DNA of 60,232 nt from Bdellovibrionales bacterium. Its GTDB lineage: Bacteria > Bdellovibrionota > Bdellovibrionia > Bdellovibrionales > UBA1609. A program made the position numbers and the translations under genes. Positions 40,701 through 56,604 of this stretch are shown piece after piece. The stretch is taken from positions 1 to 60,232 of the forward strand of contig JAYQON010000007.1 in the NCBI GenBank assembly GCA_038144835.1, written 5' to 3'. The notes beneath the pieces are model-generated. The model saw nothing but the letters and a program-made list of their open reading frames with translations, ran no database searches and had not been told where the DNA came from. The first letter of the stretch is position 1, and each line of letters opens with the position of its first letter.

Positions 40701-40788
40701 GGCGACAGGGTTCCGCAAAAGCGGCTCTAGAGAGGACCAAAATCGTAAGACAAAAGATGCTATTCACCAAACCCGAAAACATTCGCAA
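37735..40788 (-). CDS. Large exported hypothetical protein with transglutaminase-like Cys/His motif
   Basis: 1017-aa ORF, signal peptide (AFA-E), KGNCVASTSLY...FQDHVQPV. Confidence 0.7.
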   Translation of the reverse strand: MRMFSGLVNSIFCLTILVLSRAAFAEPCRLFLHSKFDSPNVRKLLLDKGFDLIADKAWQGTKRELGDLAILPAGLYLRPTLFVALKDGKLDEYVEIANQFHNLPSCSGRSRLMTQAYFHIRLGEKARRRLDDFYLRRASILGMGDLLLETEALLRFGPSGFELEADKYKRIYAGLVARVREIWEQSSNIAFESRIDRVRKYLSPYVENYFLHNNHLSGLLDYPHKGNCVASTSLYTALFVDADLNLGPDHVFAIQLFQDHVQPVIWYKKTDKLVALVSGSVESLRAPIYNPELVTWALANAARRAVHQEREYYLKIRGMSAKFADPKLVLQYAVGFKNEGTAGGHSPYLRFGSAFSLFDLTGKTVVNARQPFVEFGSRNHQTLESINQAPQASDNDEEPGGNDNPSDEREVIAKIYNASVWANVPADQRPSKAMQLHLTRRQIVFLPKAEKKVFKVTPIPFIRLAKPQEIEEFDLDLPFLIKSYWAPSSRKSQIKGVEVIFQDIRQEVVFRNLADLKLAIPEGYKSFPHLPKYLRDELLQALSSLKRDGRNMRALVQFVSNFTERKINEDYSQVLQDLNWLRRVRRIFDFVSANLSLAEINLIGLSDVSEVLEKNGYCSMKEKLANLYRAGVAQPQSYISWLESLIPQTVALQTRTMIELIEGLDFGNDTRFLCQQSADKYHGSSFPLLPLLNSLIVNYELDKTSKARPPLTMIEVSVVTMENSAEHSNPNVKAEFPSAKSSYRQNRFDVRTDTLVHLLMAQPLPVLRHPAVQLAAFVWWTSQAQASFENYWTDSSIGYRNYLELWKNGPTVMIPQWSFGGYGRAWREFSRAHGETILGNEFKPLHKLPPTVAGYVSSKMNLGKQTFSKPTVKIIQRSEQDFAALSSAKCTIGESIEIGPFAGLELAKRLAYSHWSITSEIENDCEGDHVGGKRRPGLIDGSLVIEATQQNPIGNKIQIRGFKVRVERPDELILLQLQRLDDKELLIKEEDRQKLEQLFRASGSVRVIKSNGANKKQ

Positions 40789-40832
40789 TAACTCCTCAAA
40801 ACTATACCATTCGACTTTAGCAATCGATATGC

Positions 40833-40848
40833 AGCAATCTATGTGCCT
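40833..40848 (-). promoter_or_regulatory. sigma54 promoter
   Basis: Minus strand AGGCACATAGATTGCT (GG-N10-GC), 44 nt upstream of the start; GAGGAG RBS downstream. Confidence 0.7.
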
Positions 40849-40965
40849 AATAGAGTGACCGAGTCTCGCTAAAGGTCGCGCCCCAAAGCCCGCTTAAAGG
40901 CAAGACGAGATAAAAACCACAATCTTTTTTTGAATCCCTTACTGAACAATGTTTTGCTTAAAAAT

Positions 40966-41778
40966 ATGAGCAGAAAAATTTTTCTTCTAAGCTTAATCTT
41001 TTGGGGTCTGATCCCTTGGCTTGCAAATGCCAATACGGCTATGCGTTTTGGCCATAATCTTTCTGCCACTTCCTCGGTATTACGTTCCGGCGAGTGTACC
41101 TTTGGTTTGCAACTCATCGGTTGCGGCTTGAATGATCGGCTCACCCTAGGTACGAGCACTTGGATGCTTCAAGGTTATAAACTGGCCAATGTTGGATTAC
41201 GCCATATTTTTAAAAAAGATGACCAAGGAAATGTCTGGGCTGCCGAAATTGCTTACTTTAAAAACTACGGAAAAATATCAAATCGTGAGTACTCAAAACG
41301 CCCTTATGAAATGGAAGCGTGGTGGCTGCGTTGGATACGCACGTATCAAGTTACCCCACACTATCGTCTCCACCTCAATCTTCACACCAATTATTATGCC
41401 GATGATGAAATGCCATTTTCTTTGCGTAGGCCGATCCCTAATCGCAACAATGGGCAAATTAACGTAAGCACCCTGCATGAAGTTGAGCTCTTGGATCGTT
41501 GGTTTTTATCCTCTGAGATGGGATTTTTAGACCTTGTTCAACCCGCCCAATATATCCATGTAGGGACAGCCATAGGACGCACGGGAGAAAATTATCACTG
41601 GCATATTGGCTATTCGATGAGCGCAACCATTAGGTCACTTTTTGCACCCACCAAAAGAGCCGACTATCAGCAAGAATTACGGGAAACAACTCAAGGCTAC
41701 AATACCGATATGAATCGCGACAAAGCTAGACGCGACTACAGTATACATCCCGAATTTGCTCTACAGTATTTCTTTTAA
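40966..41778 (+). CDS. Exported hypothetical protein, probable outer-membrane beta-barrel
   Basis: Signal peptide (ANA-N), aromatic-rich strands, terminal LQYFF. Confidence 0.65.
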   Translation: MSRKIFLLSLIFWGLIPWLANANTAMRFGHNLSATSSVLRSGECTFGLQLIGCGLNDRLTLGTSTWMLQGYKLANVGLRHIFKKDDQGNVWAAEIAYFKNYGKISNREYSKRPYEMEAWWLRWIRTYQVTPHYRLHLNLHTNYYADDEMPFSLRRPIPNRNNGQINVSTLHEVELLDRWFLSSEMGFLDLVQPAQYIHVGTAIGRTGENYHWHIGYSMSATIRSLFAPTKRADYQQELRETTQGYNTDMNRDKARRDYSIHPEFALQYFF

Positions 41779-42276
41779 TTATTCGCGCACCAAATGGATT
41801 AGTGTGCGTACCGTTTGTTTAACAACTTCCAGATCAAATGGCTTTTTTATATAATCATCGGCGCCCACAGCAAAACCGCGCTTGATATCTGAATCGGTCG
41901 TCCGTGCGCTTAGAAAAATAAGTGGAATTTCTTTGAGGTCGCTTTGACCTTTCATCATTTCCGCCAGCTCAAATCCGTTGACCCATGGCAAGCCCACATC
42001 AAGCATAATTAAATCTAGGGCATTGCCATCAAGTACATTTGAGAGCTGGGTGCCATCGGCTACAGCCAGCACCCGATACCCTTCTCCCTTCAGCATACGC
42101 TCGAGAGCAGCACGAATAGTTTCATCATCTTCAATTAATAAAATTGTAGGTGGAACTTGGCGCTCCTTGAGTTTACGAATATCACCAAGATTGACAATAT
42201 CCCTCTTCGCCATTCGCTCCTTGGTCAATTTTTCGATCTTTTGCACCAGATCCTTGGTGTTGATCTTGCGACTCAC
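41779..42276 (-). CDS. Single-domain response regulator with N-terminal helical extension
   Basis: LLIEDD, MLDVGLP, LSA, KKPF; GTG start 1 nt after the trxB stop. Confidence 0.88.
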   Translation of the reverse strand: MSRKINTKDLVQKIEKLTKERMAKRDIVNLGDIRKLKERQVPPTILLIEDDETIRAALERMLKGEGYRVLAVADGTQLSNVLDGNALDLIMLDVGLPWVNGFELAEMMKGQSDLKEIPLIFLSARTTDSDIKRGFAVGADDYIKKPFDLEVVKQTVRTLIHLVRE

Positions 42277-42277
42277 G

Positions 42278-43216
42278 TCACTTATGACCTTGATTTTCCA
42301 ACCAGCGTTCAGCATCAATCGCAGCCATGCAGCCAGTGCCTGCGGCTGTGATTGCCTGGCGATAATGCGGATCTTGTACATCTCCAGCCGCAAATACTCC
42401 CTCAACTGAGGTGTATGTACTTTTGGGCTTGGTATTCAAGTAGCCAACTTCATTCATTTCCAAAACGCCTTTGAAAAGATCCGTGTTAGGCTTATGCCCT
42501 ATCGCAATAAAGACGCCATCAAGATCTAAACTACGTTCCTCACTTGTTTGTAGATTTCTCAAACGAACACCCTGGACGGTTTTTTCGCCCAAAACATCAG
42601 CCAGTTCGGTATTCCAAATGACTTCAATTTTTGGATGATTGAGCACCCGTTCCGCCATAATTTTTGAGGCCCTAAATTCACCCCGACGATGAATGACGTA
42701 GACCTTATTCGCAAAGCGTGTAAGGAAGACTGACTCTTCCATTGCGGTATCGCCACCACCAACAACACATACAGTTTGGTTTTTAAAAAAGGCCCCATCA
42801 CAAGTGGCACAAGCGGATACCCCCCGCCCCAAAAGTCGACGCTCATTTTCAAGTCCTAAATACTTGGCGGAAGCCCCTGTGCTAATGATCACGGAATGTG
42901 CATGAAACAGATCTTTGTCGACCCAGACCTTAAACGGTCGTTGACTGAAATCAACTTTAGTCACGTTCTTGGTTATGAAGCGGGTTCCAAAACGCTCCGC
43001 CTGCTGACGGGTCACGCCCATAAGCTCGGGCCCCTGAATACCATGAGCAAATCCCGGATAGTTTTCAACTTCCGATGTAGTCATTAACTGACCACCGGCC
43101 TCATAGCCTTCGATCATAAGAGGTTGCAGATTGGCTCGGGCTGCATAAATCGCAGCTGTCAGGCCAGCCGGCCCCGAACCGATTATTATAACGTTTTCTA
43201 TTTTTTCTGAATTCAT
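42278..43216 (-). CDS. trxB: Thioredoxin-disulfide reductase
   Basis: GSGPAG, CATCDG, GGGDTAMEE, AAGDV...QAITAAG. Confidence 0.97.
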   Translation of the reverse strand: MNSEKIENVIIIGSGPAGLTAAIYAARANLQPLMIEGYEAGGQLMTTSEVENYPGFAHGIQGPELMGVTRQQAERFGTRFITKNVTKVDFSQRPFKVWVDKDLFHAHSVIISTGASAKYLGLENERRLLGRGVSACATCDGAFFKNQTVCVVGGGDTAMEESVFLTRFANKVYVIHRRGEFRASKIMAERVLNHPKIEVIWNTELADVLGEKTVQGVRLRNLQTSEERSLDLDGVFIAIGHKPNTDLFKGVLEMNEVGYLNTKPKSTYTSVEGVFAAGDVQDPHYRQAITAAGTGCMAAIDAERWLENQGHK

Positions 43217-43229
43217 GCGCGCAAGCTTA

Positions 43230-43871
43230 TCAGGCTGGGTGCCTTTGGTACACCCTATGACCGCCTTTGTCAGGACCCAAAGCCCATTCCCATAGGTCCT
43301 CGGCCACTTGCTCTGGAGCCCAAACCCCCACAGACCGAACTGCAGCATTTCGCGGCAGCAAGGTCGTGTCCATATAGCCCGGAGAAAAAAGTCGGAGATC
43401 CCATTCTGGGTTTTCCAATCGCAACGAACTATGCAGACCATGCAAGGCATGCTTAGCCGAGGCGTAACTAGCCGCACCGGGATCCCCATGGCTTTCCGCA
43501 ACCGAGCTGCCCGTCAAAATAATCTGGCAAGACCTGCCCGTCGCCATCAAGGCATGCACAACTCGGGCGGGAAATAGAAATGTCACTTGCCAAGCCCACA
43601 AGTGGTCCTTGAATTCCCTCTGCCCATAGGGACCGAAAGGACCTCCTCCAACCGTAATAAAAACTCGTTCGACTGGGTGGCTGAGCAAATTTTCAAGAAC
43701 CGCACATTGACCTTCTTCATTAGAAAAATCAGCCAAATGATAAGTAACCCGATCGTAGGCTGGACCGGCTTTGCGCGCAAAACCCCGCACGTCTGACCCA
43801 GCCATAGCTGCGACTTTTGCTAAACAAGAACCTAACCCCCGACTCGCGCCTAAAATCGCCACTTTTTGCAT
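43230..43871 (-). CDS. Short-chain dehydrogenase/reductase
   Basis: GASRGLG, GSS, YASAK (YxxxK), SPGYMDT. Confidence 0.88.
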   Translation of the reverse strand: MQKVAILGASRGLGSCLAKVAAMAGSDVRGFARKAGPAYDRVTYHLADFSNEEGQCAVLENLLSHPVERVFITVGGGPFGPYGQREFKDHLWAWQVTFLFPARVVHALMATGRSCQIILTGSSVAESHGDPGAASYASAKHALHGLHSSLRLENPEWDLRLFSPGYMDTTLLPRNAAVRSVGVWAPEQVAEDLWEWALGPDKGGHRVYQRHPA

Positions 43872-43916
43872 TTGCCCAATTTGCCTAAGAGTGCAAATCG
43901 CTGCAATATGATTCCT

Positions 43917-44204
43917 ATGCCCTTGATTCGTTTCGTAAAAGCTTACCCAGAAATTCAAGTTGAACGCGGGGCCTTGCTTATGCCCAGCTTGCTTCAGGCA
44001 GGACTTCCAGTGGCAAGTTCTTGCAACGGGGATGGAGTCTGTGCCAAGTGCCGCGTCAATGTCGTCGAAGGCTCTGAAAATCTTTCCTCACCAAACATAA
44101 TCGAGCAAGGATTGCGGGACCGTTTGAAAATACCCAAGGAACAACGGATTTCTTGCCAAACGCAGGTCCTCGGCGACATTCGTATAGACACTAGCTATTG
44201 GTAG
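43917..44204 (+). CDS. 2Fe-2S ferredoxin
   Basis: CNGDGVCAKC...RISCQ. Confidence 0.92.
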   Translation: MPLIRFVKAYPEIQVERGALLMPSLLQAGLPVASSCNGDGVCAKCRVNVVEGSENLSSPNIIEQGLRDRLKIPKEQRISCQTQVLGDIRIDTSYW

Positions 44205-44218
44205 GCACGCCCTTTGCG
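44203..44218 (+). promoter_or_regulatory. sigma54 promoter
   Basis: AGGCACGCCCTTTGCG (GG-N10-GC), then AAGGAGG RBS and ATG 44247. Confidence 0.72.
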
Positions 44219-44246
44219 AAGTTCCTCCAGCTTTTAAGGAGGACCC

Positions 44247-45653
44247 ATGTTATCTTTGAATCGCTACGTTTTAAGTCCGGTTTTAGTGTCCGGATTCTTT
44301 AGTTTTGGACTCGCTTCTTGCAGCCCAGAAAATAAAAAATTCTCTCAAGATGTATTTAAAGTTCCCTCTCCAAAAATTGTCCGGGCTTCTGGAGAAATCA
44401 GTGACGTGCGGAGTTTGGACTTGGCCGAGAAAAGAAATTTAGATCTCCATGACTCTATTGATTTCGGCGCGGGCGCCCCATCAAAAATCGAAGTCATCTC
44501 TAGATGCCGCACTGCTGGCGAAGAATATAGAAGTCGTCCGAAATTTCGTGTTCACAAAATATTTCTGATGCAACTACTTCCCCCCGAAATACTTGCCGTT
44601 GACTTGATGCAGACTCCTTCTGAATGCAGTATTGAGTTCGCCATTTACAACGCCAGCGGCTCAAATCACATTTTTAAAATTCTAAATGTCAATCTCACCG
44701 ACAGCCAGCCAGCACAAGTCCGCGTAGAACGAGAAAACATGGGCTCTCCAACCAGACCTTCGCGGATTGTATTTGGAGACTTAAAAGACATTCGCATTCG
44801 CTGGACAAATCAAGAACCCTCAGTGGCTCAGATCATTTGCCAAGATCTGTTTTACAGAGCTAGGCCCTTTTCAGAGGTTATGAACATTGCAGATTTTGAT
44901 CTACGCTTTCATGAACTTTACTCACGCCGACCAATTGGAACCTTAGAGCGCCACCCGATTCAAAAGTGCCGATTGGTTATACGACAAAATTCGAAACCCG
45001 TGGCCATTAGCCCACTTTTTGAACTGTTATTACCTCGTCAACCACTACAAATTACTAGTGACATGCCGCTGAACACTTCGGCGCCAAAAGAAACTGCCAA
45101 AACAACGAAAGCCACGGACGACTTTTTTCAAAAACGAAGCTCTATCGTTTTCGCTCAGTTCAAAATTTACAATCCAGAGCCCGCGCGCCGATGGATCAGA
45201 ATCAGCAAAAAAGCAGCCAAGCTAAATGTGGAAGTTTTTTTGACTGCGCACCGACGCGAATGGCTCACGATTCCATATTCTTTGAATTGGTATCACCTCT
45301 CGACGGCGGATCAACAGCCAACGACCGAAGACAAGGATTCGTCCACATATTTAATTGAACCGCACGCCTCTCTCACCGTAAATGCCACCTTGATGCCCAA
45401 AGCTAAATATGTGTGTTTCGTACGTGTTAGCCCTTACTTCCATGCGGCAGGAATACGTATTCATGCTCCTCAGATAAGCCCCGAAATCGCCGAAATCGAC
45501 ATGAGCAAAAATACCATTGAAAGGCTCTCGCTCAACTTTACTGCCCCGTTGACGATCAGCAAATACGGGGAGGTGCATGGAAACTCGGAATTATGGCTCA
45601 AAAAATCTGCCCTGCAGAACGTGACTCCTAGTTTTCCCTGCGAGTGGCACTAA
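44247..45653 (+). CDS. Hypothetical beta-rich lipoprotein
   Basis: Lipobox LASC; strong RBS; several Cys. Confidence 0.75.
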   Translation: MLSLNRYVLSPVLVSGFFSFGLASCSPENKKFSQDVFKVPSPKIVRASGEISDVRSLDLAEKRNLDLHDSIDFGAGAPSKIEVISRCRTAGEEYRSRPKFRVHKIFLMQLLPPEILAVDLMQTPSECSIEFAIYNASGSNHIFKILNVNLTDSQPAQVRVERENMGSPTRPSRIVFGDLKDIRIRWTNQEPSVAQIICQDLFYRARPFSEVMNIADFDLRFHELYSRRPIGTLERHPIQKCRLVIRQNSKPVAISPLFELLLPRQPLQITSDMPLNTSAPKETAKTTKATDDFFQKRSSIVFAQFKIYNPEPARRWIRISKKAAKLNVEVFLTAHRREWLTIPYSLNWYHLSTADQQPTTEDKDSSTYLIEPHASLTVNATLMPKAKYVCFVRVSPYFHAAGIRIHAPQISPEIAEIDMSKNTIERLSLNFTAPLTISKYGEVHGNSELWLKKSALQNVTPSFPCEWH

Positions 45654-46345
45654 GTGCGCTCAAGAAGAGCATAGCCAATTTTCAAACCCTGACGCATAAA
45701 AATACTTTCAAACTGGGTTACAAAATTAGTCGATGCAAACTCTGAGGTATGCAGGTCAAAAGTATGGCCTGCAATCCTGTAAGGGCTTCTTTTAAAGCGT
45801 TCTAAAGCCCATTCAAAATAGTCGCGACTATCAGTTTTGAAAATCAAATGTGAGCCAGGACGCTGGACCTCAAACAGTTGCATCAGAAATGCATCCTGAA
45901 TCAAACGATGTTTGTGCTGGCGCAACTTTTCCCACGGATCGGGAAAAAATATGAAAACGTCATTGAGCTCACCAGGCTCGAAAAGCTGCGAGACTAAGTA
46001 CGCATTGTAGCGAGCCATGCGTGCATTTTCCATCCCCACTCGGCGAACCCGTCGAATGGATTGGATCAACGGCTTATATTTGAGCTCAATGCCGAGCAGG
46101 CAGCGATTAGGATGATCGACCGCTCTGTGGGCAAAATGAAGTCCATTGCCCGTGCCAATCTCCAAATCCAAAGGCGTTTCTTTTGAAACAGCAAAAACTC
46201 GATCACGCCAATGACCTTTTTGCAAAGGTGCACGCTCTTCATCAAATGTCCACGATGCGTACTCGCCCTGCAGAGCCAATATGTACTCATTAGGAAAAGG
46301 AATGCTGGCGGTCTTCGAAACTCGTAATTGATTGCTTCTTGACAT
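45650..46345 (-). CDS. trmB: tRNA (guanine-N7)-methyltransferase
   Basis: LEIGTGNG, FPDPWEK...HRL, KTD...Y, TQFE. Confidence 0.95.
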   Translation of the reverse strand: MSRSNQLRVSKTASIPFPNEYILALQGEYASWTFDEERAPLQKGHWRDRVFAVSKETPLDLEIGTGNGLHFAHRAVDHPNRCLLGIELKYKPLIQSIRRVRRVGMENARMARYNAYLVSQLFEPGELNDVFIFFPDPWEKLRQHKHRLIQDAFLMQLFEVQRPGSHLIFKTDSRDYFEWALERFKRSPYRIAGHTFDLHTSEFASTNFVTQFESIFMRQGLKIGYALLERT

Positions 46346-46420
46346 AGGTGGTCGTGGATACCACAGATTGCCCATGCCTGTCATTTTTGAGATGAAAAGA
46401 ATGATCATTGGAGGTCATCC

Positions 46421-48070
46421 GTGAGTATTAACTTCCGTGTTTTCGCGGCCTTAGTATTTTTCATTTACTTGCCTGTTTTAGCGATTCCCGTTGAAGGTCA
46501 TAAAATTTTGATCTCCGCCCCCAATCGCCATGCGGTGGAAGTCGGCCGCAACATCGCTGCTCGTGGGGGCAACGTGGTTGATGTCGCCGTGGCCATTGGA
46601 ATATCTTTGAGCGTAACGGCACCTTATTATGCAGCTCTTGGCGGCGGTGGCTTCGCTCTGGTGAAGATGAATGACGTCGTAGACGCCCTTGATTTCCGTG
46701 AAACCGCACCTAAGGCAACCTCTCGCGGTTACTACCTGAACCTGCCCAAAGACTCTTCTCAAAATGGTGGACATGCGGTAGCAGTTCCCGGATTTCCGGC
46801 AGGCCTTTGGGAGCTCCACAAAAAATATGGCAAACTAAAGTGGTCGCAACTTTTTGATGATTCCCTCACCCTAGGCCGCAAAGGCTTTCCAGTATCAGGA
46901 GAATGGACCACCAAAACATCTAGCGTACGCGAGTTTTTCAATACGCACGGTCAAAATCTTTTTTTTAAACAGGGAGGAGCCGCTTACAAGCCCGGTGAAC
47001 TATTTATTCAACCAGGATTGGTGAAGGCCCTGATAGAATTCAAAACAAAAAACGTAAAAGGTTTTTATGAGGGCCCTGTTGCTCGCGATATTGTGGAGTC
47101 CGTTCAAGAAAGTGGAGGCAAATTAGATCTCGAGGATTTAAAAAGCTATAAAGTGCGCTGGTTGTCGCCACTGACAACGAATTATGAGGGACACAAGCTT
47201 TACTTAATGCCTCCACCAAGTTCTGGAGGCGTTGTTATTCTTTCTGCTCTTAGACTCATTGAGGATCTCAAGGTTAAAAATAAGCCGGCACTTTCCGCGG
47301 AGGAGCTCCATCTTTTGGCCGAAATTCATGCTCGTGCGTTTCGCGGCAGAGCTTTGCTGGGGGACCCAGACTTTCATCGCAATCCACTCAAATTTTTGAC
47401 TTCAGATAAATATTTGAGCCAACTCGGTCAATCTGTTGAAAGTAAAAAAGCAACAGCTTTAGCGCCGCTAAGCTTGATTGATGTAAAAGAGAGCTCAGAA
47501 ACAACGCATTTTTCAGTGCTCGATAATGAGGGGCATGCTGTTTCATTAACTGTAACTTTAAACGGCAATTACGGTTCAGGTGTGGTGAGCAGACGCTTTG
47601 GGATCGCTTTAAATAATGAAATGGACGACTTTACCACTCGCCCCGGTGAGCCGAATATGTATGGCCTCATTCAAGGTGAAGGCAATGAAGTTCAGCCCGG
47701 CAAACGACCTTTGAGCAGCATGAGCCCAACCCTCGTGGAAAAACATGGAAAAATCATTATGGCTATTGGAGCTCCCGGTGGTCCTCGCATCATTAGTGGA
47801 GTTTTGCAGGTACTTTACCGCTTTTTGGGGCGAGGTATGGATATAGATATGGCTATTCAGGCCCCGCGCATTCACCATCAATTTCAACCCAATATTCTCT
47901 ACGTCGACCGTCAACGTCTTTCTCCCGAAGTCACTCAAGCCCTAAAAAAATTTGGCCACAATATAGAGGAAGGTTGGATGGCTAAGGTTTATGGAGTGCG
48001 CCTGCGGCCAGATGGAATTTTAGAAGCTGCCTACGATTCTCGCGGTGAAGGTGCGGCTGGAGGCATTTAA
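46421..48070 (+). CDS. ggt: Gamma-glutamyltransferase
   Basis: GGNVVD, LDFRETAP, ETTHFSV, NNEMDDF, PGKRPLSSMSP, GAPGGPRI. Confidence 0.96.
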   Translation: MSINFRVFAALVFFIYLPVLAIPVEGHKILISAPNRHAVEVGRNIAARGGNVVDVAVAIGISLSVTAPYYAALGGGGFALVKMNDVVDALDFRETAPKATSRGYYLNLPKDSSQNGGHAVAVPGFPAGLWELHKKYGKLKWSQLFDDSLTLGRKGFPVSGEWTTKTSSVREFFNTHGQNLFFKQGGAAYKPGELFIQPGLVKALIEFKTKNVKGFYEGPVARDIVESVQESGGKLDLEDLKSYKVRWLSPLTTNYEGHKLYLMPPPSSGGVVILSALRLIEDLKVKNKPALSAEELHLLAEIHARAFRGRALLGDPDFHRNPLKFLTSDKYLSQLGQSVESKKATALAPLSLIDVKESSETTHFSVLDNEGHAVSLTVTLNGNYGSGVVSRRFGIALNNEMDDFTTRPGEPNMYGLIQGEGNEVQPGKRPLSSMSPTLVEKHGKIIMAIGAPGGPRIISGVLQVLYRFLGRGMDIDMAIQAPRIHHQFQPNILYVDRQRLSPEVTQALKKFGHNIEEGWMAKVYGVRLRPDGILEAAYDSRGEGAAGGI

Positions 48071-48999
48071 TAGGCTTCCACCCGATTGCGGCCATTTTCT
48101 TTAGCTTTGTAGAGTGCTCGATCCGCATAGCGAACCAACGCTCGCGCATCGATTTCACTCTCGTTTGGATTGGCGAGAGAAAGCCCCATACTCGCCGTCA
48201 GTTGGATCGAGAAATGGTCATTTTTAAAAGTTTGATCTGCAATCTTTTGACGAAGGCGATTGGCAAAAGTCATAGCTCCTTCCAGGTTAATTTCCGTTAG
48301 AACTAGCAAAAACTCATCGCCTCCATAACGAGCTGCAAAATCTACCTTACGTATGTTTTCTCGGATCATCTTTCCGATTTGGGTGAGAACAAAACTACCA
48401 AACAAATGGTCGTGTTGATCGTTGACTCGCTTAAAATAGTCGAGGTCCATCATAATCACACACACCGAACGGTTGTGACGGCGAGCACGATCAAGCTCAA
48501 AATCCAAACGCTTGTAAAGCGAGCGCATATTGAATAAACCCGTCAAATCGTCAATATCAACCAGTTCTCTCAAACGCTCATTGGCGCGCTTAAGGTCATC
48601 GCGTAAATCCTTAATTCGCAGTTGCGCCCTCACTCGCGCCATCAACTCTAAAATGTCGAAGGGTTTGCAAACATAGTCATCCGCGCCCGCATCAAGACCC
48701 GTAAGAATGTCTTCGCGTTTGGAATTAGCTGAAACAAAAACGACAGACACATACTCTTCTCGAGTTCGCAGTTTTGCCAAAGTCTCCAAACCATTTAGAC
48801 CAGGCATATTGACATCCAATAGAACCAAATGCGGCCGCCATTCACGAATTTTATCTAGCCCCGACTGGCCATCTTCGGCTCTTTCAACCTGATAACCCTC
48901 GTGTTCCAAGGCTTTTCCAACCAAATCTCGATTCGTCTCGTCATCATCCACGACCAAAATTTTGCGTTTTTGATTTTCTATTGGACTAAAAACACTCAT
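48067..48999 (-). CDS. dgcA: REC-GGDEF dinucleotide cyclase, Hypr type (predicted 3',3'-cGAMP synthase)
   Basis: Receiver DD/D62/K; DLDYFKRVNDQHDHLFGS (Ser202 at the guanine-reading Asp position); I-site RKVD; GGDEF. Confidence 0.9.
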   Translation of the reverse strand: MSVFSPIENQKRKILVVDDDETNRDLVGKALEHEGYQVERAEDGQSGLDKIREWRPHLVLLDVNMPGLNGLETLAKLRTREEYVSVVFVSANSKREDILTGLDAGADDYVCKPFDILELMARVRAQLRIKDLRDDLKRANERLRELVDIDDLTGLFNMRSLYKRLDFELDRARRHNRSVCVIMMDLDYFKRVNDQHDHLFGSFVLTQIGKMIRENIRKVDFAARYGGDEFLLVLTEINLEGAMTFANRLRQKIADQTFKNDHFSIQLTASMGLSLANPNESEIDARALVRYADRALYKAKENGRNRVEAY

Positions 49000-51110
49000 T
49001 CACTGATTCCTTCCAACATAAGCATAAAGGCAAAAATCTTGCTAACCACTTTCAAAGCTTCAAAACGTCCAGAAGCACCCGAATGACCCGCATCCATCTC
49101 AGTATACAACAAAAGGAGGTTGCTATTGGTCTTCAACTCTCGGAGTTTCGCTATCCATTTAGCAGCCTCCCAGTACTGGACTTGAGAATCATGATAGCCG
49201 TTAATCGCTAGGAGATGCGGATAGGCCTTAGCTTCGACGTTATCGTAGGGCGAGTACTGCCTCATATAAAGGTAGTCTTCTTTTTTTCGAGGATCACCCC
49301 ACTCATTGTATTCACCAGTCGTCAGAGGGATATTCTCGTCGAGCATTGTAGTTAAAACATCCACAAATGGCACTTGGGCGATAGCGCTGCGAAAAAGGTC
49401 TGGACGCATATTGACCACTGCACCAACTAAAAGACCACCGGCACTGCCTCCCATAATATGCAAATGATCTTTCGATGTGTAATTTTGAGCAATCAAGGAT
49501 TCAGCACTGTCGATAAAATCATAAAAAGTGTTCATCTTATGTTGCAGACGACCGTTTTCATACCACAACCGCCCCATTTCCGATCCGCCACGAACATGAG
49601 CCTGCGCAAAAATAAAACCACGATCAATCAAGCTAAAAACTGAACTCCAAAAGGCATGATCCAAACTCAAACCGTAAGAACCATAGCCATAAAGCAATAA
49701 CGGAGCCGTGCCATCCAAAGCTATGCCCTTTTTCATGACCAGGCTGACTGGAACCTCGGCTCCATCTCGAGCCGTGATAAAGAGTCGACGAGTTTCATAA
49801 AGATCTTGATTGTAATTGGGAATTTCCTTTTGCTTACGCAAGATACGCTGATGCGTGCGAAAATTTTCCTCAAAAGTGGCCGGTGGATGTACGAGCGACT
49901 GGTAGTGAAAACGCATCACAGGGCTACTATAATCAGGTAAAGGAAAATTACTTACCTCATAAGCCTCTTCATCAAAAGTGAGATAACGTTGACGACCATC
50001 CGCTCGATCGATCACCCTCAAGCGCGACAACCCACGCGACTTCTCATTCAACACAAGATGACTATTATAAACATCCAAGCCTTCTAGAAAAACTTGACTA
50101 TCATGAGCTAAAATTTCTTTCCACTGATCCTTACCGCGAGCTTGATGGGGAGCTTCCATCAAGCGAAAGTTGATGGCTTGCCAATTTGTCAAAATAAAAA
50201 AACGATCACCGCCATCTTCAAGGGCGTACTCGTGTTTGTTTTCTCGAGGCAAAAAGATGTCTCCCGAACCAATTGGATTTCGGGCATTCAAAATACGCCA
50301 TTCGGCAGAATCACGCTTACTGCTTACAATAAATAAATAAGCTCGTGTTTTGGATTTATGCAAACCAACTTCGAATGTGGTATCTTTCTCCTCGAATACA
50401 AGTTGTGGTTCTTGCATCGAACCGATCTCATAGCGGTAAATCTGATATGAACGCAGCGTTTCGGGATCTTGTTTGGCAAAAAACAAGGTTTTGCCATCCT
50501 CAGCCCAAACGAAGTATGGCGTCGCCGCCTGAATGCGATCTGGCAACAATTTGCCTGTGCGCAAATCTTTGAAATGAATGTCGTAAATGCGTCTGCCTCG
50601 GTAGTCGACTGCAAAGGCCAAAAGATTTTGATCGGTTGTCAGCTCTCTCTCTGCCAGTTCAAAGTAAGCTTGTCCGACAGCCAGTTGGTTCTCATCTAAA
50701 ATCACCTCCTCCGTCGCCTCCAAGGAGCCCTTTTTGCGGCAATGGAGGCGATACTCCTGCCCGGCCTGGTAGCGGGAATAATAAAAGTACCCAGAATCAT
50801 AGACCGGAACGCTGTCATCAGTTTCTTTGATCCTCGAGCGCATTTCCAAGTTGAGATTTTTCTCGAGGTCAACCACGGGAGCCAGCTCAGCCGCCGTACG
50901 AGCATTTTCCAAATGGAGATAATCAAGAACACCTTGGGTGTCGCGCTCACGCATCCAGTAGTAATTGTCTACCCGCACATCCCCGTGACTTTCCAGGCGC
51001 TGGGGACTTTTATGAGCGGCTTTGAATTCCATCGGCGTAACACCTTTCGTTAGAGTCAAAAATAATCCGGCAAAAAAAACCAAAAAGTAGAGCAAAACTG
51101 AAATGACCAT
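48996..51110 (-). CDS. ptrB: Oligopeptidase B (S9A)
   Basis: DNYYWMR, YGYGSYG, GGSAGG, DSQVQYWE, AGHSG; alternative start at 51032. Confidence 0.95.
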   Translation of the reverse strand: MVISVLLYFLVFFAGLFLTLTKGVTPMEFKAAHKSPQRLESHGDVRVDNYYWMRERDTQGVLDYLHLENARTAAELAPVVDLEKNLNLEMRSRIKETDDSVPVYDSGYFYYSRYQAGQEYRLHCRKKGSLEATEEVILDENQLAVGQAYFELAERELTTDQNLLAFAVDYRGRRIYDIHFKDLRTGKLLPDRIQAATPYFVWAEDGKTLFFAKQDPETLRSYQIYRYEIGSMQEPQLVFEEKDTTFEVGLHKSKTRAYLFIVSSKRDSAEWRILNARNPIGSGDIFLPRENKHEYALEDGGDRFFILTNWQAINFRLMEAPHQARGKDQWKEILAHDSQVFLEGLDVYNSHLVLNEKSRGLSRLRVIDRADGRQRYLTFDEEAYEVSNFPLPDYSSPVMRFHYQSLVHPPATFEENFRTHQRILRKQKEIPNYNQDLYETRRLFITARDGAEVPVSLVMKKGIALDGTAPLLLYGYGSYGLSLDHAFWSSVFSLIDRGFIFAQAHVRGGSEMGRLWYENGRLQHKMNTFYDFIDSAESLIAQNYTSKDHLHIMGGSAGGLLVGAVVNMRPDLFRSAIAQVPFVDVLTTMLDENIPLTTGEYNEWGDPRKKEDYLYMRQYSPYDNVEAKAYPHLLAINGYHDSQVQYWEAAKWIAKLRELKTNSNLLLLYTEMDAGHSGASGRFEALKVVSKIFAFMLMLEGISE

Positions 51111-51189
51111 GACCGAATCCTAATATTTCACCATAAGTAGCGTCCATCTAGTTGACTCTCAGCGGCACCTAATCTATTCCGACGCCCTA

Positions 51190-53610
51190 ATGTCTTATCC
51201 ACACACTGAAATCGAGCAAAAATGGCAGCAGGCTTGGGAAAAAGCCGGCATATTCAAATCGGTCGAACAGCCGGGCAAACCCAAATTTTATGCACTGGAC
51301 ATGTTTCCATACCCTTCTGGGGCAGGCTTGCATGTAGGTCACTTGGCTTCATATACACCCACAGATATTGTGGCTCGCTTCAAGCGCACCCGCGGGTTCC
51401 AAGTTCTGCATCCGATGGGATATGACGCCTTTGGTTTGCCCGCTGAACAATATGCAATACAGACAGGTATTCATCCGGCAGAAACCACACGTAAGGCCAT
51501 TGAAAATTTTCGCCGCCAACTGAAATCCTTCGGTTACAGCTTTGATTGGGACAGAGAGATCTCCACGTGTGAACCCGAATACTACAAGTGGACACAATTT
51601 ATTTTTCTGAAGCTTTATGAAAAAGGGCTCGCGTACCAAAAAGAAGTTCCTGTGAATTGGTGTCCGGCTCTCCGCACGGTTTTAGCCAATGAGGAAGTCG
51701 TTGACGGTAAGAGTGAACGTGGCGGTCATCCCGTTGTGCGTGTACCCATGAAACAATGGATGCTTAAAATCACCGATTACGCCGAGCGCCTGCTCGAGGG
51801 TCTAGAGCGTATCGACTGGCCAGAACGCACCAAGGAAGGCCAGCGCCATTGGATTGGCAAAAGTGCGGGTGCTCGCATTCACTTTCAACTTGAATCCCAC
51901 GATTTCGGATTCGAAATTTTCACCACTCGACCCGATACGATTTTTGGCGCTACCTTTATGGTGCTCGCTCCTGAGCATCCTTTGATAAAAAGGATCACGA
52001 CTTCAGCCCAAAAACTGGCAGTTGAAAGCTACATTGAGCAATCAGCACACAAGAGCGAGCTTGACCGCAAAGCCGCCATTGAGAAGACGGGAGTTTTTAC
52101 TGGCGCCTACGCATTAAACCCGCTACTTGACGCCAATAATCCAAGCGCCCGTATACCCGTCTGGATTGCTGACTATGTACTCATGGATTACGGGACCGGA
52201 GCTATCATGGCGGTTCCTGGCCATGATGAGCGCGATTATGAGTTTGCTGCCAAATTCTCATTGCCCATTAAGCGTGTGCTGGTTAGTGACCAAGAATTGC
52301 CATTTTCGGGCGATGGTCAGCTCACAAACTCAGAATTTCTCGATGGATTAAATAAAAGTGAAGCCATCCAAAAAGTGATTTCTGAGATTGAAAAACGGGG
52401 CGTAGGCGCTCGCCAAGTTCAATATAAACTTCGTGACTGGCTCTTCTCACGCCAACGCTATTGGGGCGAGCCTTTTCCAATAGTTCACCTAGAAAACAGC
52501 GGCACACAAGGGGTGCCGGCTGACGAACTGCCTGTCCTTCTGCCACCCGTGGCCGACTACGAGCCGACTGAAAAGGGTGAGCCGCCATTGGCTCGTGTGG
52601 AAGATTTTGTGAACTATATGGATAAAAAGTCTGGAGAACACGGCCGACGCGAAACCGATACAATGCCTGGTTCAGCCGGCTCAAGCTGGTATTTCTTGCG
52701 TTACACAGACCCTAAAAATAACGAGGCTCCGTTCTCTTTTACGCGTCAACAATACTGGATGCCCGTCGACTTGTACGTTGGGGGCGCGGAGCACACCGTA
52801 GGGCATTTGCTCTATGCACGCTTCTGGCAAAAGGTGCTTTTTGACGCTGGCCTGGTGAGCCACGATGAACCAATTCAAAAACTTGCCCATCAGGGTGTGA
52901 TCATGGGGCCAGACGGCGCGCGCATGTCCAAATCGCGCGGCAATGTGGTGAACCCAGATGAAGTTCGTGAAACTTATGGCGCTGATGCCACCCGCATGTA
53001 CATCAGCTTCCTTGGCCCCTTTGATAAAGACAAACCCTGGGCTACAAACGGCATTGAGGGTGTCCGCCGGTTTTTAGATAGAGTTTGGCGGCTGATTGTG
53101 GCCGATGATGGCACCAATCTTCCTTTAGACAATGAACCCCCGTCTGAAAGCCTTAATAAGCTGTTGCACAAAACCATCAAAAAGGTGGGCGAGGACCTAG
53201 AGGGCTTAAATTTCAATACAGCCATCAGCGCTATGATGATTCTGGTCAACGAGGTTTACTCTCTTGGCGTACGCCCAGCACCCGTACTAAGAACACTGAT
53301 TCAACTCTTATCACCATTAGCTCCACACATTGCTGAAGAGCTTTGGCACCGCCTTGGTGGTGAGGGTTTCGTCAGTGTGGCTCCCTGGCCTCAGTTTGAT
53401 GCCAAGTTGGTCACTGATGACGTGGTGACTATGGCGGTCCAAGTTAACGGTAAGACACGCGGCACAGTTGAAATTGGCGTACAAGCCAGTGAAGACGCGG
53501 CCGTGGCTGCAGCGCACACAGTTAATGCCGTGAAAAATGCCCTTGATGGAAAAAATATTGCCAAAGTCATTTACAAGCCCGGTAAGATTCTCAACATTAT
53601 CGTGAAGTGA
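51190..53610 (+). CDS. leuS: Leucine--tRNA ligase
   Basis: MFPYPSGAGLHVGH, RDWLFSRQRYWG, RMSKS, VQVNGK. Confidence 0.98.
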   Translation: MSYPHTEIEQKWQQAWEKAGIFKSVEQPGKPKFYALDMFPYPSGAGLHVGHLASYTPTDIVARFKRTRGFQVLHPMGYDAFGLPAEQYAIQTGIHPAETTRKAIENFRRQLKSFGYSFDWDREISTCEPEYYKWTQFIFLKLYEKGLAYQKEVPVNWCPALRTVLANEEVVDGKSERGGHPVVRVPMKQWMLKITDYAERLLEGLERIDWPERTKEGQRHWIGKSAGARIHFQLESHDFGFEIFTTRPDTIFGATFMVLAPEHPLIKRITTSAQKLAVESYIEQSAHKSELDRKAAIEKTGVFTGAYALNPLLDANNPSARIPVWIADYVLMDYGTGAIMAVPGHDERDYEFAAKFSLPIKRVLVSDQELPFSGDGQLTNSEFLDGLNKSEAIQKVISEIEKRGVGARQVQYKLRDWLFSRQRYWGEPFPIVHLENSGTQGVPADELPVLLPPVADYEPTEKGEPPLARVEDFVNYMDKKSGEHGRRETDTMPGSAGSSWYFLRYTDPKNNEAPFSFTRQQYWMPVDLYVGGAEHTVGHLLYARFWQKVLFDAGLVSHDEPIQKLAHQGVIMGPDGARMSKSRGNVVNPDEVRETYGADATRMYISFLGPFDKDKPWATNGIEGVRRFLDRVWRLIVADDGTNLPLDNEPPSESLNKLLHKTIKKVGEDLEGLNFNTAISAMMILVNEVYSLGVRPAPVLRTLIQLLSPLAPHIAEELWHRLGGEGFVSVAPWPQFDAKLVTDDVVTMAVQVNGKTRGTVEIGVQASEDAAVAAAHTVNAVKNALDGKNIAKVIYKPGKILNIIVK

Positions 53611-53642
53611 CCCTTTAAACGGGTGAGAGGTTTTAAAATAAG

Positions 53643-55658
53643 ATGAGCGACTGGACTGTTAAAAAATCATCTGATCTTTACGGGATCAATTACTGGGGTG
53701 CAGATTTCTTTCGCATTAACACCCAAGGCAATGTTGAGATTACTCCAGCCGGCAGTAACGGCCCTGGTCTTGATCTACACAACCTTGTGCTCGATTTGCA
53801 GGAACGCGGTATCCGTATGCCCATCCTGCTGCGTTTTCCAGATATCATAAAAACACGCATAGAACTTTTAGCGGGGTGCTTTGCTCGTGCCATTGAAGAA
53901 GCAAAGTATGGTGGCGTATATCGCGGCGTTTACCCTATCAAGGTCAACCAACAAAAACATCTCGTTGAAGAGATTCTTGAGTTTGGACAGTTCCACCGCT
54001 TTGGACTTGAGGCGGGATCTAAACCTGAACTTCTGATCTCACTCGCGCAAATGGATACTCCAGGGGCGCTGATCATCTGCAACGGTTTTAAAGATCAAGA
54101 ATACATAGAAATGGCTCTGATCTCCCAGCGCCTTGGACGTAATACTTTCATCGTTGTCGACCGCTTCTCTGAGCTCCCGATGATTATTGCAGCATCCAAA
54201 CGCTTGAATATACGGCCTAACATTGGGTTGCGGGTCAAGCTTAACACTCCTGGATCGGGCCGTTGGTCGGAAACCTCTGGCGCAAAATCAAAATTTGGAC
54301 TTACCCCCTCAGAGATTGTTCGAGGAGTCGAAATTCTGCGGTCAGAAAATATGTTGGACTGCCTTCAACTCATGCATTTCCACATCGGTTCCCAGATTCC
54401 CTCAATTCACGCGATCAAAGCCGCCATGAAAGAAGGTGCACGTTTCTTTGCGGAAATTTATGCGATGGGTGCAAACCTCAAATACATCGATGTGGGCGGT
54501 GGTTTGGGAGTCGATTATGATGGTTCAGGCCGCTCTGACAGCTCAACCAACTACTCCGAGCAAGAGTACGCAAACGATATCGTTGCCACATTGCAGTCTA
54601 TCTGTGACGAAAAAAAGGTGCCCCACCCAGATATTATTTCTGAATCAGGCCGAGCTTTAGTAGCCCACTCCACATTGCTTGTCTTTGATGTGTTGGGGCA
54701 TAATGAAAACACTCTGCGCGACTACATTCTTGTAAACCCAGACAAAGAATCTCGACTAGTACAAGATCTCTGGGACATCTATCGCTCCGTGAGTAAAGAA
54801 AACGTCAATGAGTACTATAATGATTTGGTCGAGAAAAAACGCGATACTCTTCAATTATTTACGTACGGGGTTCTAAGTCTCGAACAAAGAGCTAAGGCCG
54901 AAGATCTTTTCCGTGCTATTGCCACTAAGATAGTGAATATCTGCAGAGAAAATTCTGAGCTGGAAGACATACGTTACGCCCTGGAACAAGAGTTATCCGA
55001 TTCTTATTTCTGTAATTTCTCCGTCTTTCAGTCTCTCCCCGATTCCTGGGCTCTAGACCAACTCTTTCCAATAATGCCTATTCACCGGCTGCAGGAGCGC
55101 CCCGATCGGCGAGCCGTCCTAGTAGATATCACTTGTGACTCTGACGGAAATATAACAAATTTTATCGATGCTGAGTCGGGCGGCGAACAAAAATATTTAG
55201 AGGTTCATACTCTCTACCAGGGCCAGCCGTACTACCTTTGCGCCTTCTTAACCGGCGCTTACCAAGAAATTTTGGGCGATTTGCACAACCTCTTTGGCGA
55301 TACAGATGCAGTGCATGTCTCCCTGACTGAGAATGGCTATCAAATTGATCATGTCGTTGAAGGCGACGATATCAAAGAGGTCTTACAGTACGTGGAATAC
55401 AACAGAGCTGATTTGTTGGAAAGAGTACGCAAAGCAACTGAAAGCAGCATTCTGAAAGGCACGATTTCGCGCTCAGAAGCTCGCCTCTTGCTTGAACATT
55501 ATGAACGTGGTTTATCCAGTTATACATATTTGACGGAAGAAACGACTATGCCGTTTATTCCGCAACGGAAGGAGTTCTCGCAAAATGGCTCAAACTCAGG
55601 GACCGATCAGTCAGTTCATAACCAAGAATTACAGACACTTCAACGCAGCCACTCTTAG
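53643..55658 (+). CDS. speA: Biosynthetic arginine decarboxylase
   Basis: VYPIKVNQ (PLP Lys), GLEAGSKPEL, HFHIGSQ, DITCDSDG, GDLHNLFG. Confidence 0.96.
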   Translation: MSDWTVKKSSDLYGINYWGADFFRINTQGNVEITPAGSNGPGLDLHNLVLDLQERGIRMPILLRFPDIIKTRIELLAGCFARAIEEAKYGGVYRGVYPIKVNQQKHLVEEILEFGQFHRFGLEAGSKPELLISLAQMDTPGALIICNGFKDQEYIEMALISQRLGRNTFIVVDRFSELPMIIAASKRLNIRPNIGLRVKLNTPGSGRWSETSGAKSKFGLTPSEIVRGVEILRSENMLDCLQLMHFHIGSQIPSIHAIKAAMKEGARFFAEIYAMGANLKYIDVGGGLGVDYDGSGRSDSSTNYSEQEYANDIVATLQSICDEKKVPHPDIISESGRALVAHSTLLVFDVLGHNENTLRDYILVNPDKESRLVQDLWDIYRSVSKENVNEYYNDLVEKKRDTLQLFTYGVLSLEQRAKAEDLFRAIATKIVNICRENSELEDIRYALEQELSDSYFCNFSVFQSLPDSWALDQLFPIMPIHRLQERPDRRAVLVDITCDSDGNITNFIDAESGGEQKYLEVHTLYQGQPYYLCAFLTGAYQEILGDLHNLFGDTDAVHVSLTENGYQIDHVVEGDDIKEVLQYVEYNRADLLERVRKATESSILKGTISRSEARLLLEHYERGLSSYTYLTEETTMPFIPQRKEFSQNGSNSGTDQSVHNQELQTLQRSHS

Positions 55659-56562
55659 GGACGCCGCTGAAGGTTATCGCCAGCATATTGACGGTGGCGG
55701 AAAAATGCTCGTAACTTTGGCGGGAGCCATGTCGACCGCCGAGCTTGGAATCTCGTTGGCTGAAATGATTCGCCAAGAAAAGGTCCATGCGATTTCGTGC
55801 ACAGGCGCCAACCTAGAAGAAGACGTCTTTAATCTTGTAGCTCATGAGGACTATCTGCGCATTCCTCACTGGCGTGAGCTTACCTGCGATGATGAAATGG
55901 CATTGCTAGACAAGCATCTTAATCGCGTAACTGATACTTGTATCCCCGAAGAGCAGGCCATTCGAAAAATTGAAAAATTCGTGCTCAACAAATGGGAGCA
56001 AGCCTCTGCCGAGGGCAAAGCATACTTCCCACATGAGTACTTTTATCAAATTTTACGGGATGGTTCCTTGAAGCAAGCCTATCAAATAGATCCCAAGCAC
56101 TCTTGGCTTCTTGCTGCTTGCGAGAAAAACTTGCCTATTTTCGTTCCAGGCTGGGAGGATTCTACTCTCGGCAATATTTTTGCCGGTCGCTTGATGCAGG
56201 GAAAAGTAAAACGAGAATGTCTCAAATCGGGCCCTGACTATATGGTCGAGTTGGCCAATTGGTATATGAAGTCTGAAAACTCAAAAGGCATTGGTTTCTT
56301 CCAAATTGGTGGCGGTATTGCCGGTGATTTTCCAATTTGTGTAGTCCCTATGCTTGAGCAAGATATGGAGCGCAACACTGCAAAATGGTCCTACTTTTGC
56401 CAAATCAGTGATTCCACGACGTCTTATGGGTCCTATTCAGGAGCAACGCCAAATGAAAAAATCACTTGGGGTAAACTTGATAAGAACTCACAAAGATTTA
56501 TCGTAGAATCTGACGCTACAATTGTCGCGCCTCTCATGTTTGCTTACATCATGGGATGGTAA
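55585..56562 (+). CDS. Deoxyhypusine synthase-like protein (SpeY-type aminobutyl transferase)
   Basis: AGAMST, CTGANLEED, GGGIAGDF, SYSGATPNEKITWGK, SDATI; AAGGAG RBS. Confidence 0.92.
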   Translation: MAQTQGPISQFITKNYRHFNAATLRDAAEGYRQHIDGGGKMLVTLAGAMSTAELGISLAEMIRQEKVHAISCTGANLEEDVFNLVAHEDYLRIPHWRELTCDDEMALLDKHLNRVTDTCIPEEQAIRKIEKFVLNKWEQASAEGKAYFPHEYFYQILRDGSLKQAYQIDPKHSWLLAACEKNLPIFVPGWEDSTLGNIFAGRLMQGKVKRECLKSGPDYMVELANWYMKSENSKGIGFFQIGGGIAGDFPICVVPMLEQDMERNTAKWSYFCQISDSTTSYGSYSGATPNEKITWGKLDKNSQRFIVESDATIVAPLMFAYIMGW

Positions 56563-56587
56563 GGTCGGAAGCGACATTACCGACCTT
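56561..56587. terminator. Hairpin between convergent genes (possible terminator)
   Basis: AAGGTCGG-N11-CCGACCTT with no long U-tract. Confidence 0.4.
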
Positions 56588-56604
56588 GAACACCAAGAAT
56601 TGAG

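Follow-up and report, generated by a model that had tools for sequence, protein, structure and literature searches.

Hybrid promiscuous (Hypr) GGDEF enzymes are defined by a Ser or Thr at the site held by D344 in PleD and by S348 in GacA (PMC9140294, PMC6456294). Natural enzymes of this kind are described as possessing GGDE[F/Y] exclusively and the combination of Ser with GGEEF as inactive, the so-called 'Goldilocks' rule (PMC6456294). In GacA, Ser348 makes contact with the base at its Watson-Crick face and Asn339 at its sugar face, Asp374 of the GGDEF motif holds Mg2+ and Glu375 is the general base acting across the dimer (Hallberg et al. 2019, PMC6456294). The ratio of products is tuned by the cross-dimer residue, Tyr304 in GacA; Tyr, Ser, Ala and Gln are listed for enzymes preferring cGAMP (3',3'-cyclic GMP-AMP) and Arg for those leaning towards cyclic di-GMP (c-di-GMP) (PMC6456294). 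The second described system is Bd0367 (DgcA) of Bdellovibrio bacteriovorus HD100, reported as a Hypr GGDEF enzyme by Hallberg et al. 2016 (as cited in PMC9140294), whose phospho-acceptor is D74, specificity Ser S214 and I-site Arg R260 (Lowry et al. 2022, PMC9140294). It forms cGAMP in vitro as well as in vivo and is its organism's primary producer of this messenger; the substitution S214D converts it to a c-di-GMP synthase and abolishes cGAMP synthesis, and the strain carrying this substitution keeps c-di-GMP yet mimics the deletion strain, gliding and prey exit being lost (PMC9140294). Here we describe the domain architecture, signature residues, orthology and order-wide conservation of a gene for a response regulator with a receiver (REC) and a GGDEF domain, situated in a stretch of 60,232 nucleotides (contig JAYQON010000007.1, positions 1 to 60,232; hereafter the window) from the metagenome-assembled genome (MAG) of a Bdellovibrionales bacterium (3.14 Mb, 188 contigs, marker completeness 100%). 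The gene is very probably the orthologue of Bd0367 in this uncultured member of the order, and its protein a predicted cGAMP/c-di-GMP synthase.

Signature residues of the enzyme

The open reading frame (ORF) of the cyclase starts with an ATG, and the frame counted from stop to stop opens at this same ATG, directly after an in-frame stop. Pfam recognised two domains in the encoded protein of 310 residues, Response_reg (residues 14-124, E 1.1e-31) and GGDEF (residues 148-306, E 4e-41). The segment between them matches, in the alignments with PleD and 6zxm, the linker of these REC-GGDEF enzymes and would form a coiled coil. The receiver residues D18-D20, D62, S90 and K112 are invariant in an alignment of 16 sequences (alignment A1). 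A preliminary description, made from the letters of the window, had seen an intact GGDEF motif, an RxxD site and a phosphorylatable receiver here, and all of the residues concerned were found.

The residue of greatest interest is Ser202, which the same description had placed at the PleD D344 site within the pattern D185-x7-N193-x8-S202. The peptide DLDYFKRVNDQHDHLFGS, containing D185, N193 and S202, is present in the protein, and both the pattern and its placement were borne out by gap-free alignment. In the HMMER alignments with four PleD entries S202 stands opposite the Asp of 'ghdigd', without a gap from D185 to S202, and counting by hand in the PleD chains 2wb4_A and 9g85_A shows this Asp to be residue 344. 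The counterpart of N193 in PleD we take to be N335. When the catalytic domain was searched alone, its top solved relative was 6d9m, a T4-lysozyme fusion of the Hypr GGDEF domain of Geobacter metallireducens GacA (E 2.5e-37, 131.3 bits; next entry 3.5e-32, 114.6 bits), where S202 lies opposite the Ser of 'ghlvgs'. The alignment check against PleD and GacA that had been proposed thus sets S202 opposite PleD D344 and opposite the specificity Ser of GacA, and the alignments to solved structures are ungapped around all residues of interest.

The protein therefore has Ser, as Hypr enzymes have Ser or Thr, at the site where canonical diguanylate cyclases possess the Asp that enforces specificity for GTP. 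It combines this Ser with GGDEF at residues 226-230, and N193, D228 and E229, the counterparts of the Asn and of the catalytic Asp and Glu, align with GacA and are invariant in alignment A1. The cross-dimer site is occupied by M158, which is neither the canonical Asp/Arg nor among the Tyr, Ser, Ala and Gln listed in PMC6456294; the Bd0367-type proteins of the genus g39 (see below) also possess Met there. All the other signature positions agree with those of Hypr GGDEF enzymes, and by its sequence the protein is placed in their family.

Conservation, orthology with Bd0367 and gene neighborhood

Conservation of the Ser was examined in three sets of relatives: the 120 best homologues from databases (67-100% identity), the 80 best of 434 stretches encoding relatives in a scan of one genome per species, and 30 loci fetched from g39. 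All 120 homologues possess DHLFGS, together with LTGLFNMR in 116 and LTGLYNMR in four, and all keep the Asp at the third place of the motif, 85 as GGDEF and 35 as GGDEY. Ser was likewise found in each of the 80 species loci (79 DHLFGS and one DHLYGS) and in 30/30 of the loci from g39, that is, at the specificity site of all 230 relatives inspected. Because it is invariant in the three sets, we conclude that Ser202 is neither a chance substitution nor a sequencing error.

The surroundings of this group were explored in an exhaustive HMMER search: the lone catalytic domain served as the query against 1.84 billion cluster representatives, and the 150 best matches were scanned for motifs. Among these matches 36 possess Ser and one Thr, 38 possess one Asp-type domain and 71 two Asp-type domains, one possesses Glu, and three were unreadable. 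Asp-type proteins rank this high mainly because most of them hold two domains whose scores are additive; the single-domain matches among the 150 with at least 44% identity are all of the Ser or Thr type. Each of the 37 Ser/Thr representatives has GGDE[F/Y], and their cross-dimer site is occupied by Met in 34, Gln in two and Tyr in one. It follows from this pattern that the domain belongs to a coherent Ser-type subfamily, in which the Ser is not an isolated substitution.

The 80 best species relatives come from MAGs labelled Bdellovibrionales, Pseudobdellovibrionaceae, Bdellovibrionaceae, Bdellovibrionia or Bdellovibrio sp., with one exception (Proteobacteria). Where they are named, the 120 best homologues are called diguanylate cyclases, from MAGs of Bdellovibrionales or Pseudomonadota, or 'cell cycle response regulator'. 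Of the NCBIfam models, that of the generic GGDEF 'diguanylate cyclase' domain alone scored above its cut-off (160.1 bits vs 37.4), and no model for a cGAMP synthase was among the 25 best of 98 families. This is in accordance with the expectation, voiced in the preliminary description, that automated annotation would miscall the enzyme as a c-di-GMP synthase: for public sources and NCBIfam the gene, like several hundred of its orthologues, is simply a diguanylate cyclase.

Kinship with Bd0367 had been named before; the orthology is newly established here. It was approached through g39, a genus of the same order represented by 44 genomes, many of which consist of one contig (3.3-4.2 Mb). Exactly one match at E <= 1e-60 was found in 42 of the 44 genomes, with 54-57% identity to the query protein. 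When one of these g39 proteins was used in the reverse search of the window's genome, the cyclase gene was returned at E 3.5e-105 and the next match at 5.4e-27, so that the two are reciprocal best hits. The landmarks of the two enzymes are also co-linear, as D62, S202 and R248 differ from D74, S214 and R260 of Bd0367 by a constant offset of 12.

The link from g39 to Bd0367 was made through the mutagenesis primers printed in PMC9140294, which translate to HDHLFG, the mutated codon and YVLSEVG. The corresponding peptide, HDHLFGSYVLSEVG, is encoded exactly by 25 of the 30 fetched g39 loci, and in six g39 loci the S214/R260 numbering is reproduced exactly from an upstream ATG. The DNA pattern of the primers, with up to two mismatches allowed, had no match in 384 genomes of the order, and therefore only the encoded peptide was used; the primers probably target a recoded expression construct. 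Taken together, the peptide encoded by the primers, the numbering of the residues and the position in the genome lead us to infer strongly that g39 is the genus holding Bd0367.

Gene order points in the same direction. In genera g37 and g39 trmB adjoins the cyclase gene at 34 of 38 loci, and among the species loci it does so at 44 of 80; in the window GGT is inserted between the two. Upstream lies the S9 oligopeptidase gene, whose stop overlaps the cyclase start (Table 1), and these two genes are therefore probably co-transcribed. The ATGA overlap suggests translational coupling of a protease with a signalling enzyme, an arrangement in which the oligopeptidase gene lies directly upstream of the cyclase gene in 17 of the 80 related species loci. 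No kinase gene was found in the annotated stretch 40000-57000 of the window. Three long ORFs of the window have no Pfam family at E <= 1e-5 (Table 1).

To describe the distribution of the cyclase we considered genomes of the order at least 90% complete and took a match at E <= 1e-60 as presence. A close homologue is present in 244 of these 280 near-complete genomes, and in 240 of 274 when contamination is limited as well, the Ser itself having been read in the fetched subsets and not in all 244 genomes. By family, presence amounts to 57/82 in f1, to which the source organism belongs, 128/131 in f3, 21/21 in f8 and 19/20 in f10, to which smaller families are added. Absences are concentrated in genera of its own family with genomes of 1.2-2.3 Mb (g18 0/4, g29 0/14, g30 0/4), and several genomes of the same family hold two matches at E <= 1e-60; both losses and duplications of the cyclase orthologue have taken place in this family. 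The tally is purely descriptive, as the relatives are not independent samples.

Table 1. Positions of the cyclase gene, its domains and residues, and of other features; features outside the window are given with our own labels for their location.
Feature	Position	Strand	Basis
Whole gene, 310-aa REC-GGDEF response regulator, predicted Hypr GGDEF of Bd0367 type	48067..48999	-	ORF, Pfam, reciprocal best hit
Receiver domain, residues 14-124; acidic pocket D18-D20, phospho-acceptor D62 (codon 48814-48816), S90, K112	48628..48960	-	Pfam and residue reading
Helical linker from receiver to cyclase, residues 125-147	48559..48627	-	alignment with linker of PleD and 6zxm
GGDEF catalytic domain, residues 148-306	48082..48558	-	Pfam; best solved relative of the lone domain is 6d9m
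M158, equivalent of cross-dimer GacA Y304, 44 residues before Ser202	48526..48528	-	ungapped 6d9m alignment, counted by hand
N193, equivalent of base-contacting GacA Asn339	48421..48423	-	PleD and 6d9m alignments
S202 (AGT), specificity residue, equivalent of PleD D344, GacA S348 and Bd0367 S214	48394..48396	-	alignments
Primary I-site RxxD, R217-K-V-D220	48340..48351	-	sequence reading
GGDEF motif, residues 226-230; third place Asp, not Glu	48310..48324	-	sequence reading
R248, second I-site Arg, 46 residues after Ser202, like Bd0367 R260 and GacA R393	48256..48258	-	sequence reading
Upstream gene, S9 oligopeptidase (ptrB-like)	48996..51110	-	stop overlaps cyclase start (ATGA, 48996-48999)
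Long ORF, 1017 aa	37735..40788	-	
Long ORF, 282 aa	40930..41778	+	
Long ORF, 468 aa	44247..45653	+	
HD-GYP protein with RSYN (outside the window)	G000:C87:3350-4336 = L089 1030-2016	+	HHE..GYP, then RSYN
GEMM-I aptamer (outside the window)	G000:C140:2137-2230 = L001 1500-1593	-	66.8 bits on RF01051
GGDEF fragment (outside the window)	G000:C21:15043-15207 = L087 1516-1764	+	holds only the RYGGDEF part

Other cyclic dinucleotide components of the genome

A census of GGDEF domains in the genome returned six matches, five full domains and one fragment. The C6 (REC-GGDEF), C162 and C21 proteins combine Asp with GGEEF and the C48 protein is degenerate, so that the cyclase of the window is the only one of the five full domains with Ser at the specificity site. 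The fragment, a short ORF on C21 (82 aa from the first start, 106 aa from stop to stop), looks like a truncated remnant; it is situated about 1.8 kb upstream of the GGDEF domain of the Asp-type C21 protein, the N-terminus of which looked FHA-like by eye.

The preliminary description had also proposed that the genome be searched for HD-GYP phosphodiesterases of cGAMP and for GEMM-Ib riboswitches, and of these two a candidate for the first was found. Four HD_5 matches are present: that on C54 has the canonical RPYR, two are degenerate, and the one on C87 has HHE..GYP followed by RSYN. In the alignment this RSYN lies opposite the RPYK of PmGH (4mcw), a c-di-GMP enzyme, and opposite the RPYR of V-cGAP3 (5z7c). 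Rxx(Q/N) in place of Rxx(K/R) after GYP has been described as the signature of cGAMP-preferring HD-GYP enzymes, with RxxN in Bd2325 (Wright et al., bioRxiv 10.1101/600031), and the C87 protein possesses it. The motif is RSYN in 11 and RSYS in one of 12 loci of its own genus (own locus included), and RSYN in the best match of all five g39 genomes compared (49-51% identity). An orthologue of this HD-GYP was found in 43 of 82 other f1 genomes and, at genus level within this family, only in genera that also hold the cyclase; five genera (g3, g14, g26, g27 and g28) hold the cyclase without an HD-GYP of the C87 type at E <= 1e-50. No EAL domain (PF00563) was detected in this assembly with 100% marker completeness, and turnover of c-di-GMP would therefore rest on HD-GYP enzymes only. 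A search with the SMODS model PF18144, for which the controls were working, detected no CD-NTase (cGAS/DncV-like nucleotidyltransferase) in the genome; the DncV-like Pfam model PF21654 also gave no match, but it was silent in the control genomes too and is hence uninformative.

The riboswitch search had the opposite outcome. The genome contains a single GEMM-I aptamer. Directly 5' of the G-C pair of P1b, at Vc2 position 20, it carries G, with A at 47 and C at 92, as read from the alignment with our own placement of the Vc2 numbering on the Rfam consensus. As read with this numbering, G20/A47/C92 is the canonical c-di-GMP arrangement. The aptamers of the GEMM-Ib class, which sense cGAMP, have A at position 20, and binding by wild-type Vc2 is at about 10 uM for cGAMP vs picomolar for c-di-GMP (PMC6140456). 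No GEMM-Ib, that is, no GEMM-I with A at position 20, was found in the genome, and the effector is therefore not a riboswitch of the Geobacter type; such an absence would be expected for a system of the Bdellovibrio type. The label c-di-GMP-I-GGC, which the aptamer received in the Rfam clan competition (59.5 bits, cut-off 59), was rejected, as A and not G occupies the position at which the aptamer departs from the consensus of that model, and the score on RF01051 is higher. A G+C-rich hairpin followed by a run of T is located about 40 nt downstream of the aptamer, and an ORF resembling an aldolase/dehydrogenase starts about 165 nt downstream. The aptamer could be either a terminator riboswitch of the classical kind or, like merRNA of Bdellovibrio, a stand-alone RNA; the authors writing on merRNA could not find it outside Bdellovibrio (PMC3627812).

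Proposed function and comparison with known systems

By analogy with the described enzymes, D62 of the receiver would be phosphorylated by some kinase, which would promote a productive dimer. The helical linker would join two GGDEF domains, each binding one NTP, with Ser202 in place of the canonical Asp and Asn193 accepting either adenine or guanine. Asp228 would hold Mg2+ and Glu229 of the partner subunit activate the 3'-OH, the dimer yielding mainly 3',3'-cGAMP from ATP and GTP and, as a second product, c-di-GMP. Binding of a cyclic dinucleotide to the I-site (R217xxD220 and R248) would exert negative feedback, and the RxxN HD-GYP encoded elsewhere in the genome probably degrades cGAMP. The preliminary description had predicted a 3',3'-cGAMP synthase. 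The Hypr signature and the orthology with Bd0367 support this, with the amendment that the enzyme, like Bd0367, probably makes c-di-GMP in addition to cGAMP. Whether the enzyme would also control gliding and prey exit in the source organism, as Bd0367 does, is speculative.

Several observations weigh against so close a parallel with Bd0367. The identity to the Bd0367-type proteins of g39 is modest (54-57%), and the link to Bd0367 runs through the primer peptide, the numbering and the genome position rather than through a record named HD100. The cross-dimer Met is covered indirectly, through the g39 proteins that also carry Met. No GEMM-Ib aptamer was found in the genome, and its sole GEMM-I has G20. 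Finally, the phosphomimic D74E of Bd0367 shifted the product towards c-di-GMP (PMC9140294), from which it follows that the phosphorylated enzyme might favour c-di-GMP.

The last two of these observations, together with the c-di-GMP that Bd0367 also makes (PMC9140294), would suit an enzyme that is essentially a diguanylate cyclase in the source organism, ATP being used in vitro and c-di-GMP being the relevant product in the cell or once the receiver is phosphorylated. Of this class of riboswitch the genome has, after all, a single member, which is of the c-di-GMP type. We nevertheless regard this as unlikely. An Asp would suffice for a pure diguanylate cyclase, yet Ser is invariant in the 230 relatives; the genome already holds three GGDEF enzymes of the Asp type and, in addition, a conserved HD-GYP with RxxN; and the S214D strain of B. 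bacteriovorus, although it keeps c-di-GMP, copies the deletion phenotype (PMC9140294).

The modest identity, and the two matches at E <= 1e-60 in some genomes of the same family, which indicate that duplications occur, would also fit a separate paralogue that acquired its Ser independently and to which the function of Bd0367 is not transferable. This is very improbable, as the reciprocal best hit is about 78 orders of magnitude ahead of the next match, the match is single both in the window's genome and in 42 of the 44 g39 genomes, the trmB synteny is shared, and the local motifs DHLFGS and LTGL[FY]NMR are common to the set compared. Degenerate GGDEF receptors do exist in this genome (the C48 protein), but that the domain discussed here is catalytically dead and a cyclic-dinucleotide receptor only is hardly credible, since the catalytic and substrate positions that could be mapped (D185, N193, S202 and G226-F230) are intact and invariant among the relatives.

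The orthology with Bd0367, which we thus prefer as the explanation, removes most of the novelty of the gene: with it an enzyme already known is found in a further family of its order, and nothing new in kind is added. Bd0367, the sole characterised member, supplies its organism as the main cGAMP synthase and governs exit from prey. A broader proposal, to which we incline only tentatively and with slightly more doubt than confidence, is that the Bd0367-type cyclase (Ser, Met and GGDE[F/Y]) would be an ancestral and nearly order-wide cGAMP module of the Bdellovibrionales, often paired with an RxxN HD-GYP and lost only in genera with small genomes, and that in lineages such as this one, without EAL and GEMM-Ib, cGAMP would act through an undiscovered class of protein effectors. 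If the module is indeed order-wide, the large set of orthologues and the clean pattern of presence and absence could be used to search for the effector by phylogenetic profiling.

Among the known systems, the best solved relatives over the full length are PleD of Caulobacter (E 5.7e-57) and DgcR of Leptospira (6zxm, E 4e-45), which have the fold, the linker, the I-site and the logic of the receiver in common with the cyclase. They differ from it in the Asp at the specificity site, in GGEEF and in making c-di-GMP only, and PleD furthermore has two receivers. GacA (GSU1658 / Gmet_1914; 6d9m, and 5VS9 in the table of the paper) shares the Ser, the Asn, GGDEF, the I-site Arg and an N-terminal receiver. 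Its cross-dimer residue is Tyr, in contrast to Met here, and it works with GEMM-Ib riboswitches, none of which was found in the window's genome; the molecule name of 6d9m lists a GAF domain, which the 310-aa protein lacks. The C87 HD-GYP, with HHE..GYP and RSYN, resembles Bd2325 in the RxxN signature; its identity to the best matches in g39 is 49-51%, and the match to Bd2325 itself is indirect, drawn from these proteins.

Bd0367 is the closest of all. It differs in sequence (54-57% identity, taken over the g39 proteins) and in belonging to another family of the order (f3, as opposed to f1 for the source organism), and in gene context, as here an S9 peptidase gene overlaps the cyclase start and GGT stands between the cyclase gene and trmB. 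Its partner Bd1971 we take to be an EAL enzyme. If so, this c-di-GMP-degrading protein (PMC9140294) has no detectable counterpart here. The likenesses are many: both enzymes consist of REC and GGDEF domains with the phospho-acceptor Asp, the specificity Ser and the I-site Arg at identical spacing, and, as seen through the g39 proteins, they share the peptide HDHLFGS, the cross-dimer Met, GGDEF, the synteny with trmB and the standing of reciprocal best hits.

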